Source: a virus
Lineage: Duplodnaviria > Heunggongvirae > Uroviricota > Caudoviricetes
Virus record (IMG/VR): IMGVR_UViG_2529292977_000014
Direction: 5' to 3' (one strand)
Length of the DNA stretch: 5,162 nucleotides
In this document: in pieces, positions 466 through 5,162 of the stretch
How the letters are laid out: each line of letters starts with the position of its first letter
Position numbering within the stretch: the stretch's first letter is position 1
Program-made: the position numbers and the translations under genes
The notes under the pieces: generated by a model
The model's database searches: none
What the model was told of the DNA's origin: nothing
Seen by the model: only the letters and a program-made list of their open reading frames with translations

Positions 466-765
466 ATGAAACTTAAATATTCTGGCTTAACTGCCAGTGG
501 CAACACTCACCCTAAATTTACGCGCGGTGATATTTACCGCGACCAGTACGGCGGCACGGTAATGATTAAGGGCGTGGAAGAACGGCGCGTAACCTACCGC
601 CGTGAAGGTTACGAATATGATTGCGTGATGCCTGTTTATCAGTTCCGGCGTGATTTTTCTCTGGTACAGACCGCGCCGCATAACGTGCCCACCAGCAACG
701 CCAGGGCACGGGCAAACATCCAGAAGCTGAAAACCATGGTTAACGGATTCAGGGGCAAGAAATGA
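466..765 (+). CDS. hypothetical protein, translationally coupled to downstream replication gene
   Basis: ATG at 466 preceded by GGAGA (450-454); 99 aa; its stop overlaps the start of the next gene as ATGA (762-765); basic, Arg/Tyr-rich; no recognisable family. Confidence 0.5.
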   Translation: MKLKYSGLTASGNTHPKFTRGDIYRDQYGGTVMIKGVEERRVTYRREGYEYDCVMPVYQFRRDFSLVQTAPHNVPTSNARARANIQKLKTMVNGFRGKK

Positions 766-2614: not shown

Positions 2615-3021
2615 CGGCACAGATAGCCGCTTACGGGCGGCTGGTGGACGACCCGCAGGTAAAACAGACCAGCAAGGGCACACCGATGACGCTGGCGCGT
2701 ATGGCGGTATCTTTGCCATGCAGCCAGGCACAGGACGGACAGGCGACGTTATGGTTATCGGTCATCGCATTTGGCAAACAGGCCGGCTTCCTGGCTAAAC
2801 ATCAAAAAGGCGATGTTGCCAGCGTATCCGGCACGATGCAGGTAAGCCAGTGGACCGGACAGAACGGAGAAACGCGGCAGGGCTGGCAGGTTATCGCAGA
2901 CAGCGTAATCAGTGCCCGCGCGGCACGTCCAGGCGGGAACAGACGCAAAACCACAGGCACACAGGGTAATCAGCCACCAGCGGGAGGCGATGACCCTTAC
3001 GGTGATGATATTTCGTTCTGA
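2611..3021 (+). CDS. ssb: single-stranded DNA-binding protein (SSB), short form
   Basis: 136 aa. The N-terminal OB-fold pattern parallels E. coli SSB (GRLVDDPQV vs GNLGQDPEV; LWLSVIAFGKQA vs WHRVVLFGKLA; SQWTGQNGETR vs RKWTDQSGQDR); Gly/Pro/Gln-rich linker; acidic C-terminal tip DDPYGDDISF resembling the SSB DDDIPF tail; RBS GGAGAGGTGG at 2596-2605. Confidence 0.8.
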   Translation: MTAQIAAYGRLVDDPQVKQTSKGTPMTLARMAVSLPCSQAQDGQATLWLSVIAFGKQAGFLAKHQKGDVASVSGTMQVSQWTGQNGETRQGWQVIADSVISARAARPGGNRRKTTGTQGNQPPAGGDDPYGDDISF

Positions 3022-3031
3022 GGGGGTGACG

Positions 3032-3304
3032 ATGGTACATGACCGCATAGCGGAGGAACTGGAGGCGAAAGGCTTTTACCGGAGGGCGGCGGCGCGATGG
3101 GGTGAAGTCATGCAGCTGGTGGAGACAGACAAGGAACGGCATCACATCACGATGCGACGGCTGGAATGTTCAAGGAAGGCACAGAGGGCACCGGAGCCGC
3201 CGGATAATTTCGGAGACCTGAAAAAGGCAGTCGATCGCACTTATGCCGAAATGGGTATAGATGGTGCTGGTGATGAAATATGGCGCAATTACCAGGACAG
3301 CTAA
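3032..3304 (+). CDS. PerC-family-like transcriptional regulator (Pch/PerC homologue), tentative
   Basis: 90 aa; ATG at 3032 preceded by GGGGGTGA; N-terminal motif EELEAKGFYRRAAARWGEVM matches my recollection of the conserved PerC/Pch motif (LE-KG-WRRAA-RW); size typical of the family; followed by an intrinsic terminator. Confidence 0.55.
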   Translation: MVHDRIAEELEAKGFYRRAAARWGEVMQLVETDKERHHITMRRLECSRKAQRAPEPPDNFGDLKKAVDRTYAEMGIDGAGDEIWRNYQDS

Positions 3305-3310
3305 TCAAAC

Positions 3311-3334
3311 AGCCGGAGAAATCCGGCTTTTTTT
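3311..3334 (+). terminator. rho-independent terminator (T1)
   Basis: Stem AGCCGGA (3311-3317) / TCCGGCT (3322-3328) with loop GAAA, followed by a T-run to 3334; 7 nt after the stop of the PerC-like gene. Confidence 0.7.
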
Positions 3335-3430
3335 GCACCAGTTGAAACGGTATGGCGCATTACCGGGTTTTCGTCACGGTCAGGCATAGTTACTATCTGA
3401 AACAAACAGACACAACAGAGGAAAAAAACA

Positions 3431-3655
3431 ATGCCGATGAAATTTGATGAGATATTAAAACAGCGTGATAAATACCATGCTGACAACATGGAGACGATGA
3501 GCATCAATGATTACCGCGCATTCCTGGAGACGGGCGCACTGATTGAAAAGGATCAGCATGGTTTTGTGAGATGTGCTCTATCCGGTGAAATGCTGGCGGT
3601 AAATCCTGAACAGATAGATGCATTGATAGAATTTCTGAAAGAGATCAGAGACTGA
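3431..3655 (+). CDS. hypothetical small protein (orphan, terminator-bracketed cargo gene)
   Basis: ATG at 3431 preceded by AGAGGA (about 3416-3422); 74 aa; acidic; own upstream intergenic region (3337-3430) and bracketed by terminators T1 and T2/T3; no recognisable family. Confidence 0.5.
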   Translation: MPMKFDEILKQRDKYHADNMETMSINDYRAFLETGALIEKDQHGFVRCALSGEMLAVNPEQIDALIEFLKEIRD

Positions 3656-3674
3656 GCCAGCACACAGCACACAT

Positions 3675-3697
3675 AGCCGGAGCAATCCGGCTTTTTT
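3675..3697 (+). terminator. rho-independent terminator (T2), near-duplicate of T1
   Basis: Stem AGCCGGA (3675-3681) / TCCGGCT (3686-3692) with loop GCAA, T-run 3692-3697; 26 of 29 nt identical to the T1 region. Confidence 0.7.
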
Positions 3698-3703
3698 GCG
3701 CCC

Positions 3704-3745
3704 AAAAAAAGCCCGATAAGGTCAGAGGGTTCTTATCGGGCTTTT
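3704..3745. terminator. second, possibly bidirectional, intrinsic terminator (T3)
   Basis: A-tract 3704-3710, perfect 10-bp stem GCCCGATAAG (3711-3720) / CTTATCGGGC (3732-3741), 11-nt loop, T-run 3742-3745. Confidence 0.6.
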
Positions 3746-3821
3746 GCATATGAGGTTTTTGGATGCACTGGCGTTCGTGATCGGGATAATCATTTCATAA
3801 TTTGCAACATAACTCAATATC

Positions 3822-3872
3822 ATTGCATAAAATGCAATTCTGATTATAATCAGGACTGGATAAACATCCAGT
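3822..3872 (+). promoter_or_regulatory. candidate repressor- or activator-controlled promoter with three palindromic operators upstream of the capsid operon
   Basis: Consensus -10 TATAAT at 3845-3850 inside a perfect 14-bp palindrome CTGATTATAATCAG (3840-3853); weak -35 TTGCAT (3823-3828, 16-bp spacer) inside palindrome ATTGCA-N5-TGCAAT (3822-3838); third palindrome ACTGGAT-N4-ATCCAGT (3855-3872) near the predicted start site; AT-rich intergenic region following two terminators. Confidence 0.45.
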
Positions 3873-3906
3873 TATGATTTTTTTAGTCGAAGAGGAATTT
3901 CTTACT

Positions 3907-4113
3907 ATGGCTGAAGAGAAAAAAAGCGGTGTTTCGGTGTACATAAGCCCCGAAATCGTGGAGGTGCTCAAGCAGCGCCACAAAAAAAACTATGAAGCTG
4001 GCGTTGCGGCTGGACTGGATCCGCTGATGACGCCGGAGCCGTCGATAGGTTCACTTGTACGCTCTTATTTACTTGCGGCGCTTGGGATGCATAAAAATTA
4101 TGGGGGTGAATAA
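3907..4113 (+). CDS. hypothetical small protein preceding the capsid gene (possible capsid-accessory protein)
   Basis: ATG at 3907 preceded by AAGAGGA (3890-3896); 68 aa; stop TAA overlaps the capsid ATG (TAATG, 4111-4115). The track ORF begins at ATG 3874, which lacks an RBS and sits inside the operator palindrome. Confidence 0.5.
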   Translation: MAEEKKSGVSVYISPEIVEVLKQRHKKNYEAGVAAGLDPLMTPEPSIGSLVRSYLLAALGMHKNYGGE

Positions 4114-5162
4114 TGGCAGGCAAAGCAACGGCACTTAACACTAACCAGCTTTTCATGTACCTGAATCGCGGGGATATTGCGGATTTTAAATTCAGCCCTC
4201 TGTTTACCACGCTGTTTTTCCCGAACGTGGCGACATTCAGCACGCAAAACATCATGCTGGATACCCTGGACATTGAAGAAGTCACCATGTCGGCGTTTTG
4301 TTCGCCTATGGTGGGTAGCCAGGTTCAGCGCGATAAAGGGTACGAAACCAGCACAATCAAACCTGGCTACATGAAGCCAAAGCACGAAATCGATCCAACG
4401 AAAACCATCATGCGCATGGCTGGAGAAGATCCGGCACAGCTTAACGACCCTACCTATCGCCGTATGCGCCTGATTACTGGCAACATGCGCCGCCAGATAA
4501 ACGCCATTAAGGCACGCGTGGAATGGCTGGCGGTGAATGCGGTAACGACCGGAAAAAACATCATTGAGGGCGAAGGCATAGAACGCTATGAAATCGACTG
4601 GAAAATACCGGAAAACTGCATCATAGAGCAGGCCAAGGGTAAAAAATGGTCCGAGCAGGATAAAGACATGCACGACCCAATCTATGACATCGAGCTTTAT
4701 GCTGATCAGGCTGGTTGCCCCGCAAACGTCATGATTATGGGCGCTGAGGTATGGCGCACATTACGCAGCTTTAAAAAATTCCGTGAGCTGTACGATCTTT
4801 CCCGTGGTTCAGAATCCGCCGCCGAACTGGCCTGTAAAAACCTGGGCGAAGTGGTGAGCTTTAAAGGCTATCTTGGTGATCTGGCCCTTATCGTCTATTC
4901 CGGCAAATACACTGACAGCGATGGTACCGAAAAATATTTCCTTGAGCCTGATTTGCTGGTCCTGGGTAACACCAACAATAAAGGGCTGGTGGCCTATGGT
5001 GCGATAATGGATCAGGAAGCGGTAAGAACGGGCGCTGCGGCACTGGGGATGGCGGATATCTCTGATGTGATGATTGCTCAGGGCCTGCTGTTGCCTGCGA
5101 TTGTGGTGCTGGGGCTAAATATCTGGACCACCAACGATAACGCGCTCTATGCGTCGGGTTTA
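4113..5162 (+). CDS. major capsid protein, lambda gpE-like (Phage_cap_E family), 3'-partial
   Basis: Open frame from ATG 4113 to the window end (350 codons, no stop), RBS GGGGGTG at 4102-4108. Strong motif-by-motif correspondence with lambda gpE as recalled: FKFSPLFTTLFF vs FKFDPLFLRLFF; KPGYMKPKHEIDP vs TPGYVKPKHEVNP; DPTYRRMRLITGNMR vs DPAYRRRRIIMQNMR; KWSEQDKDMHDP vs EWSKRDKSTYDP; SFKGYLGDLALIVYSGKY vs SYKGMYGDVAIVVYSGQY; VLGNT in both. Confidence 0.85.
   Translation, partial: MAGKATALNTNQLFMYLNRGDIADFKFSPLFTTLFFPNVATFSTQNIMLDTLDIEEVTMSAFCSPMVGSQVQRDKGYETSTIKPGYMKPKHEIDPTKTIMRMAGEDPAQLNDPTYRRMRLITGNMRRQINAIKARVEWLAVNAVTTGKNIIEGEGIERYEIDWKIPENCIIEQAKGKKWSEQDKDMHDPIYDIELYADQAGCPANVMIMGAEVWRTLRSFKKFRELYDLSRGSESAAELACKNLGEVVSFKGYLGDLALIVYSGKYTDSDGTEKYFLEPDLLVLGNTNNKGLVAYGAIMDQEAVRTGAAALGMADISDVMIAQGLLLPAIVVLGLNIWTTNDNALYASGL

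Follow-up and report, generated by a model that had tools for sequence, protein, structure and literature searches.

The stretch analysed here (the window) comprises 5,162 nucleotides of the viral record IMGVR_UViG_2529292977_000014 and is assigned by its sequence to a phage-inducible chromosomal island (PICI) of EcCICFT073 architecture, which occupies the roxA-phoQ site in Escherichia coli O157:H7 and its relatives. Between the replication and capsid genes of this island lies a segment that we regard, with a probability of roughly 0.6, as a real and optional single-gene module (hereafter also the cassette), which is gained, lost and exchanged, has its own weak or activator-dependent expression, and encodes a product that binds a protein. 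Its parts are a conserved ~95-nt leader that includes a ribosome-binding site, a gene of 74 codons and a GNRA-capped intrinsic terminator. The module stands directly behind the terminator that closes the PerC unit and before the bidirectional terminator that opens the capsid module.

A Small Gene between Near-Identical Terminators

The cassette is directly preceded by a PerC-family gene of the pchE type (3032..3304, plus strand; Pfam PerC, E=3.9e-43). The terminator that follows this gene, T1 (3311-3334, plus strand; AGCCGGA-GAAA-TCCGGCT plus seven T; -13.1 kcal/mol), has a close counterpart at the far end of the cassette, T2 (3675-3697, plus strand; AGCCGGA-GCAA-TCCGGCT plus six T; -12.5 kcal/mol). 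They form the left and right copies of a repeat, AGCCGGAGAAATCCGGCTTTTTTTGCACC at 3311-3339 and AGCCGGAGCAATCCGGCTTTTTTGCGCC at 3675-3702, which are identical in 26 of 29 aligned columns and differ in one loop base, one T of the T-run and one A/G; the original prediction had given exactly these coordinates and sequences. A repeat search of the window reports a direct repeat at 3306-3333 and 3670-3697 (89% identity, spacing 364), and a 23-nt pattern with up to three mismatches finds just two sites in the window, with 0.00 expected from 200 shuffles. Enclosed by the copies are the leader (3335..3430, plus strand), in which positions 3367-3420 form a near-invariant block and AGAGGA (3417-3422) is the ribosome-binding site, the 74-codon open reading frame (ORF; 3431..3655, plus strand), which has that site 8 nt upstream, and a CA-rich 3' untranslated stretch (3656..3674, plus strand) that is hypervariable among cassettes. 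The self-contained unit of intergenic region, ribosome-binding site and 74-aa ORF that had been proposed to lie between terminators is therefore present. Its ORF is identical to ECs1589 (ECs_1589) of O157:H7 Sakai in 73 of 74 residues (99%), and pchE of Sakai (ECs_1588) is annotated at the position that matches the PerC gene of the window.

Both T1 and T2 score as intrinsic terminators, with a 7-bp stem containing five G-C pairs, a 4-nt loop and six to seven T. Further downstream, T3 (3704-3745, both strands) is a 14-nt perfect inverted repeat at the gpE-type capsid module's left end; its stem of 14-15 bp follows an A-run and precedes a T-run, scoring -21.7 and -20.0 kcal/mol on the two strands. 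This second strong terminator had likewise been foreseen, and it reads as real and bidirectional. All three fit the rho-independent pattern of a G+C-rich hairpin followed by a T-run, and in all relatives compared terminators occur just 3' of a stop codon or at a module end. T1 is predicted to close the early/PerC transcription unit; in relatives, the early operon finishes with a T1-type hairpin, which may follow SSB, PerC or the 74-aa gene and which follows SSB in islands without PerC.

The hairpin is found at other places as well. T2 is identical to the sole terminator of islands with an empty site, and in EcCICFT073 and L002 the exact hairpin together with its downstream sequence comes straight after PerC. 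A third copy is located in the same island, outside the window and after a connector-like gene (L001 11950-11965, L001 being the locus that carries the island). Some 35 nt beyond this third copy, just upstream of the TerS gene (L001 11950-12040), stands a sequence (GGGCGGCGACCTCGCGG...TTTCGCTATTTATGA) which we take to be a lambda-like cos. The exact hairpin GCCGGAG-NAA-TCCGGC plus T5 also recurs in unrelated AT-rich viral contigs with differing flanks (IMG/VR, among L029-L141): 26 of the 120 IMG/VR loci fetched by the hairpin pattern match none of the reference proteins of the island; of these, L116 is a piece of the island itself, and the other 25 are AT-rich contigs whose flanks are unrelated. 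This recurrence indicates a probable convergent use of GNRA-capped terminators.

Presence and Absence of the Module

When window positions 3000-4150 were compared with 5426 complete E. coli genomes by megablast, alignments ended at window position 3332 or 3696, or began at 3705. One locus, L004, matches only the cassette stretch (3310-3696), and homology to the capsid module in other islands starts at 3705. At the empty site of L002, L003 and EcCICFT073, the order is PerC, a single hairpin, T3 and the capsid module with no gene between; L003 joins the left flank of T1 to one hairpin and the right flank of T2. In the HK97-type background, L005 and Sakai are occupied and L006 is empty, and the sequence 3' of the hairpin is unrelated to that of the window; Sakai Sp7 has pchE (ECs1588), ECs1589 and the HK97 capsid gene (ECs1590) in this order. 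Because either the module or a single hairpin is found at the exact spot in two unrelated capsid backgrounds, the polymorphic interval equals one period of the repeat (364 nt). The cassette behaviour that had been postulated for the segment is borne out in these related islands, both by the single hairpins without the gene in the gpE-type islands and by the occupied and empty pair L005/L006.

The cassette was counted at 593 places in 540 of the 5426 genomes, all at least 90% identical save two distant matches, and PerC of the window's group at 1117 places in 962 genomes. Modules vary independently of each other: between L005 and the window, the cassette is 97.9% identical, PerC 93.0% and SSB 93.9%. 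Across 94 IMG/VR satellite loci, three replicase types and two capsid modules are freely combined, SSB, PerC and the ORF each being present or absent, and the early block has the hairpin at its end in every case. The cassette is carried by 15 of 36 PerC-positive and 0 of 17 PerC-negative IMG/VR loci (Fisher p=0.001, relatedness not corrected for), and in E. coli it is seen only behind a PerC gene. The slot is either empty or filled by this gene in the E. coli islands examined, with a sole alternative in L007, an island without PerC, where ~170 nt of unrelated non-coding DNA (L007 3820-3990) lie between the early-operon hairpin and T3. A transplant of these 170 nt from downstream of the third hairpin was considered and rejected, only the hairpin and 9 nt being matched.

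The GC content of the cassette is 42-47%, against 58-60% in the replication module, and the start of the capsid operon downstream is similar to it (37-50%). Among 14 distinct cassette sequences, 14 of the 19 positions of the 3656-3674 stretch are variable, and its sequence is not alike in the gpE-type and HK97-type backgrounds; this stretch behaves as a putative right-hand mosaic junction. The leader block 3367-3420, by comparison with third codon positions (19 of 74 variable), has only two variable sites in 54, and the leader is therefore constrained.

Leader and Expression

Read from the sequence, TACTAT (3391-3396) is the sole -10-like element of the leader and has a poor -35 partner. The fold of the leader RNA is no better than that of shuffles (z=0.05), and there is no Rfam match in the leader or elsewhere in the window. 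Published RNA sequencing (RNA-seq) of O157:H7 strain PA20 treated with an SOS-inducing antibiotic gives ECs1589 a log2 fold change of -2.3 against untreated cells, i.e., a 5-fold drop, at a false discovery rate of ~0 (PMC5931665 supplement). The upstream genes ECs1586-1588 have far weaker statistics in the same table, which lists fold changes and contains neither absolute counts nor transcript starts (PMC5931665). This suggests an appreciable basal transcription of ECs1589 that is not simply inherited from upstream.

A 42-codon ORF at window 3261-3389 (plus strand) overlaps the 3' end of PerC and crosses T1. RefSeq labels it 'hypothetical protein', other genomes carry the label 'trigger factor', and it is almost certainly a spurious gene call.

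An Acidic Protein Family of Satellites

The 74-aa ORF is a real gene, given a ratio of nonsynonymous to synonymous polymorphism (pN/pS) of 0.09-0.20 among its alleles and given its homologues in other genera; the pN/pS values place the gene under purifying selection. An exhaustive HMMER and profile search extended the family to Klebsiella, Citrobacter, Ewingella and Arsenophonus, whose homologues are 31-48% identical, with E-values down to 1e-31 in the HMMER profile comparison. The gene had been called an orphan, a label that must be withdrawn now that a family is found in satellites of other Enterobacterales. The protein falls into PHROG 1957, which has no assigned function (E=2.3e-42, residues 1-74 of an 82-position profile). 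It is acidic (isoelectric point 4.8, net charge -6), as is the family, in which the isoelectric point is 4.6-6.0 in all members but one (6.7). Y28 and Q61 are conserved in the family, along with a DHHGF-like motif and LSGE...EQ(L/I)D. A single-sequence AlphaFold2 prediction was poor (predicted local distance difference test, pLDDT, 53) and was replaced by a model based on an 18-sequence alignment (pLDDT 83), which shows a pair of helices at the N-terminus, a small beta region and one helix at the C-terminus.

The sole Pfam signal, DUF7189, covers the C-terminal 22 residues with 16.5 bits (E=0.0098), below the 27-bit gathering threshold, and is detected in only 2 of 18 family members. No defence model of PADLOC-DB matches the protein at E<=0.1; a defence role, named at the outset among those frequent for such insulated genes, finds no counterpart in those models. 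A tblastn search of the gene against 50,697 phage genomes gave no match; it is therefore not a phage gene. A profile match to residues 82-121 of N.BspD6I, in the DNA-recognition region of this nicking endonuclease, has a whole-sequence E of 2.3e-4 and a per-stretch E of 0.12; a likeness to N.BspD6I or to a winged-helix recognition subdomain was rejected, the match being too weak and lacking fold support. P0019 (1383 aa, seven matched stretches) was rejected as a homologue too, being a leucine-rich-repeat-like, bias-driven false positive. Our literature search found no paper naming ECs1589, and papers on PICIs of the EcCICFT073 and EcCIEDL933 types discuss neither this gene nor the duplicated terminator (PMC6092414, 10.1101/2022.09.08.507074, PMC3378721).

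Where does the family reside? Nine of the ten contexts outside E. coli are satellites with an int-alpA-replicase arrangement that encode their own capsid, some of the HK97 type and others of a type in which ClpP and capsid are fused. Seven of these nine have the homologue after the replicase and the origin, as the last rightward gene ahead of the capsid genes, and in the two Arsenophonus elements it follows TerL. The tenth (L148, a JGI metagenome contig) has an 84-aa distant member at the edge of a small integrative element; this element has a rolling-circle Rep-like gene and is not a capsid-encoding satellite. In Klebsiella, Citrobacter and Ewingella, the homologue stands directly after the replication genes and origin, with no PerC, and in the five of these loci that were scanned it closes the early operon. 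The 98-aa ORF that precedes the Ewingella homologue was considered as a PerC and rejected, as it is not PerC-like.

The Klebsiella and Citrobacter satellites (L010-L013, L016-L018) have, downstream of the homologue, a single gene of ~637 aa in which a ClpP/S49-like protease is fused to Phage_capsid_4, and they carry Abi_C or other cargo at the island end. The Arsenophonus nasoniae records (L014, L015) are 16 kb long with a full HK97-type packaging module and two different replication proteins, one primase/VapE-like and one Replicase/PriCT, and may represent an extrachromosomal, satellite-like element.

The Host Island

By Pfam and PHROG scans, the window holds in order DUF4222, a RepA-type AAA_25 replicase, SSB, PerC, the 74-aa ORF, a 68-aa ORF and a lambda gpE-type major capsid gene. 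Chromosomes of E. coli O157:H7 match it at 100% identity. The roxA-phoQ island that carries it is ~11 kb long and runs from an integrase, a helix-turn-helix gene and Icd-like genes through to the decoration protein and TerS. Its gene order is int, an alpA-like gene, RgdR, RepA with an iteron origin, SSB, PerC, gpE-like capsid, gpD-like decoration and TerS. The features of a PICI are all present, namely int, an alpA-like regulator, a replicase with adjacent iteron origin, a size of ~11-15 kb, a specific site and a partial morphogenesis module, as judged from the annotation of L001 and the Pfam matches of the window; site and order agree with EcCICFT073 in strain CFT073. Islands of the EcCICFT073 type share with the window the site (roxA/ycfD-phoQ), the gene order, an RgdR-family gene, PerC/pchE, and gpE-like capsid and decoration genes, which in EcCICFT073 are c1499 and c1500, respectively (PMC6092414). 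Unlike the window, EcCICFT073 is without the cassette. Helper-phage induction and high-frequency transfer are known by experiment only for EcCICFT073 (PMC6092414) and EcCIEDL933 (bioRxiv 10.1101/2022.09.08.507074).

Sakai and EDL933 have another satellite at the roxA-phoQ site, the HK97-type capsid-forming island Sp7/OI-51/CP-933C (PMC3378721, PMC1890555), and in Sp7 of Sakai, an island of the EcCIEDL933/Sp7/OI-51 type, the 74-aa gene of the window is present as ECs1589. The site in O157:H7 lineages thus holds either a gpE/gpD/TerS island (L001, the window) or an HK97-type Sp7/OI-51 island (L145, Sakai). The pchE-ECs1589 region is common to both satellites (L001 and L145), which agrees with the lineage-specific variability reported near pchE (PMC1890555).

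Of the other elements in the window, the DUF4222 protein (466-765, plus strand, 99 aa) belongs to the RgdR family of regulators and shares R20-G21-D22 with Sakai ECs1581; RgdR, encoded in OI-51, activates type III secretion (PMC3378721). Directly 3' of the RepA gene, the iteron AAAAGTGAGG occurs at 2161, 2246 and 2329 within 2161-2372, together with a longer 44-nt repeat and a 24-nt palindrome (2217-2256). The 2161-2372 region with its iterons and palindrome is the predicted iteron origin of the island.

Beyond T3 lies the control region of the capsid operon (3794..3906, plus strand), which is part of the downstream module and travels with the gpE-type capsid module whether the cassette is present or not. 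It comprises a promoter-like site (3794-3823, plus strand), two perfect palindromes upstream of the capsid operon, ATTGCATAAAATGCAAT (3822-3838) and CTGATTATAATCAG (3840-3853), and a hairpin (3854-3873). Palindromes and hairpin overlap the promoter-like site and are kept with the gpE-type module in all islands compared. The palindromes at 3822-3853 look like operators for a candidate regulator.

Discussion

How might a single gene come and go at so exact a position, and how might it be expressed? We envision a scenario whereby homologous recombination in the flanks brings about gain, loss and exchange of the unit, and the 23-nt terminator shared by both ends may offer a short patch of homology. 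The gene's own expression in this lineage, probably weak or activator-dependent, would then be due to the upstream terminator together with the constrained leader, and the protein would work via binding another protein, not DNA. The gene is dispensable for the satellite cycle, because EcCICFT073, which is induced, packaged and transferred (PMC6092414), carries no copy. Tentatively, the protein might be an accessory modulator that is linked to PerC or to helper-phage exploitation during the island cycle. A bolder and still less probable proposal is that the ECs1589 family is a dedicated effector of capsid-encoding satellites, acting as a partner or antagonist of PerC/PchE or as a helper-hijacking factor, with GNRA-capped terminators as portable recombination joints.

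Several observations weigh against one or the other part of this picture. The leader (3335-3430) has no consensus sigma-70 promoter, no site reaching 9 of 12 consensus matches, so that expression could depend on read-through at T1. Independent transcription of the gene, as assumed in the original prediction, is plausible but unproven: the constrained leader and the RNA-seq change of ECs1589 support it indirectly, and the want of a consensus promoter does not. The five Klebsiella, Citrobacter and Ewingella loci scanned have a terminator after the homologue and none before. In L009 (E. coli SB0258h1), a homologue with 74% DNA identity overlaps the stop codon of PerC (ATGCCAGTAA), and in L019 the distance from the preceding ORF to the start of the homologue is 12 nt; autonomy is therefore not inherent to the gene. 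A corollary of the L009 overlap and of the five loci without an upstream terminator is that the insulation is a peculiarity of this E. coli lineage. Recent precise deletion was not seen when O157 was searched for it with a synthetic deletion junction, in which near-identical matches were all two-piece (occupied) and single-piece empty sites had flanks at most 90% identical to the window; exchange of the cassette appears to be old or rare. The repeat alone is no proof of duplication, because the 26/29 identity falls mostly in the functionally constrained hairpin and T-run and because the hairpin recurs elsewhere. The hairpin being a generic GNRA-capped terminator, its role as a recombination joint is unproven, and the duplication by recombination at the terminator that had been suggested is not demonstrated. 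Structure prediction and remote homology search, proposed as checks at the outset, yielded the cross-genus homologues and the pLDDT 83 model, and also the negative result that the 74-aa protein has no Pfam match above threshold and no NCBIfam, PDB or BFVD match. Finally, EcCIEDL933, the prototype of HK97-type capsid-forming PICIs, does not lower helper titres (bioRxiv 10.1101/2022.09.08.507074). We infer that EcCIEDL933 is the OI-51/Sp7 island and hence carries the gene; strong interference is therefore unlikely, at least for those phages.

Could the cassette instead be a classical moron, which has a constitutive promoter to itself, is active in the quiescent island and confers a host-level trait such as lysogenic conversion, defence or anti-defence? 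The terminators on both sides, the constrained leader, a GC content below that of the upstream module and the presence/absence polymorphism would all be expected, and ECs1589 transcripts were precisely measured in uninduced cultures before their 5-fold drop after the SOS-inducing antibiotic (PMC5931665). We nevertheless consider this doubtful, although it has to be taken seriously, since no consensus promoter and no PADLOC match were found, since in other genera, as in L009, the homologues stand last in early operons as ordinary genes without an upstream terminator, and since nine of ten non-E. coli contexts are capsid-encoding satellites, seven with the gene at a fixed pre-capsid position, which fits a role in the satellite cycle better than random cargo. 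Of the moron-like cassette originally predicted, the absence from relatives and the downstream terminator T2 hold up, but elsewhere its homologues are regular operon members. The latter fact lends itself to another account, somewhat less probable again, in which the early operon ended ancestrally with the 74-aa gene, the inserted cassette is instead PerC with its terminator, whose arrival upstream duplicated the hairpin, and islands without the gene arose by deletion between the repeats. Consistently, the homologue directly follows the replication genes and origin, with no PerC, in Klebsiella, Citrobacter and Ewingella; PerC too is optional, its limits being the SSB stop codon and the hairpin (L008; 17 PerC-less loci); and direct repeats of 23 nt favour deletion. 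Yet the gene is found without PerC in none of the 17 PerC-less E. coli loci, an SSB-ORF74 arrangement does not occur in the 94 IMG/VR loci, the empty sites have well-diverged flanks, unlike recent deletions, and the translational coupling of PerC and the homologue in L009 means that the pair can be one unit.

Two further explanations fare worse. An improbable one holds that this small protein has a degenerate winged-helix-like fold, binds DNA sequence-specifically and regulates the downstream capsid operon. The position of its gene immediately upstream of the operator-like palindromes of that operon would suit such a regulator, as would the weak N.BspD6I profile match with its whole-sequence E-value; against this stand the poor per-stretch E-value, the acidic nature of the protein and the many islands that have the same capsid operons without the gene. 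Moreover, nearly the same allele (98-99%) precedes the unrelated control regions of gpE-type and HK97-type capsid operons, which disfavours a sequence-specific role at those promoters. That there is no feature at all, with a common terminator recurring by chance and an ORF that is not a gene, draws on the convergent hairpins of unrelated viral contigs and is extremely improbable: zero chance matches are expected in the window, and pN/pS, the strength of the cross-genus matches, the confident alignment-based AlphaFold2 model and the exact presence/absence boundaries leave this explanation refuted by the comparative data.

The optional single-gene module that we favour can be set beside three known systems. 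Morons of lambdoid phages, a concept of Juhala and Hendrix, resemble the cassette in being an extra gene between neighbours that are adjacent in relatives, in being bounded by terminators with precise presence/absence boundaries, and in a base composition unlike that of the upstream neighbour. Unlike them, the cassette has no recognisable promoter, resides in a satellite rather than a phage, is a fixed-position ordinary operon member in other satellites and shows only indirect signs of expression from the quiescent element. Staphylococcal pathogenicity islands (SaPIs) encode small proteins (Ppi, PtiA/B/M) just after the rep-ori module, which bind helper-phage proteins and vary between islands. 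The 74-aa gene is likewise small, located after the replication module of a satellite and variable between islands, but its product has no similarity to these proteins in sequence or fold, and EcCIEDL933 causes no drop in helper titre. P4 and PICI satellites, finally, have accessory or defence hotspots, i.e., defined slots whose content differs between otherwise similar islands, as is the case here; unlike those hotspots, the cassette slot is internal, between the regulatory/replication and capsid modules and not at the island end, and its gene matches no defence model.

Mosaic optional genes bounded by terminators are an already known pattern and will not surprise a specialist, and the terminator-delimited layout provides a clean, small example of module shuffling in satellites. 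The gene is carried by ~10% of complete E. coli genomes, O157:H7 Sakai (ECs1589) included, where it adjoins pchE in OI-51/Sp7, an island reported to affect type III secretion and ruminant colonisation. The residence of its family in capsid-encoding satellites of several Enterobacterales makes it a cheap and well-defined target for PICI biology, and natural islands with and without the gene exist (EcCIEDL933-type and EcCICFT073, respectively). If terminators do serve as joints, they would make the interval between replication and capsid genes a plug-and-play cassette array, and if the protein is an effector tied to PerC/PchE, it could couple carriage of the island to the control of adhesion, flagella or virulence in enterohaemorrhagic E. 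coli.

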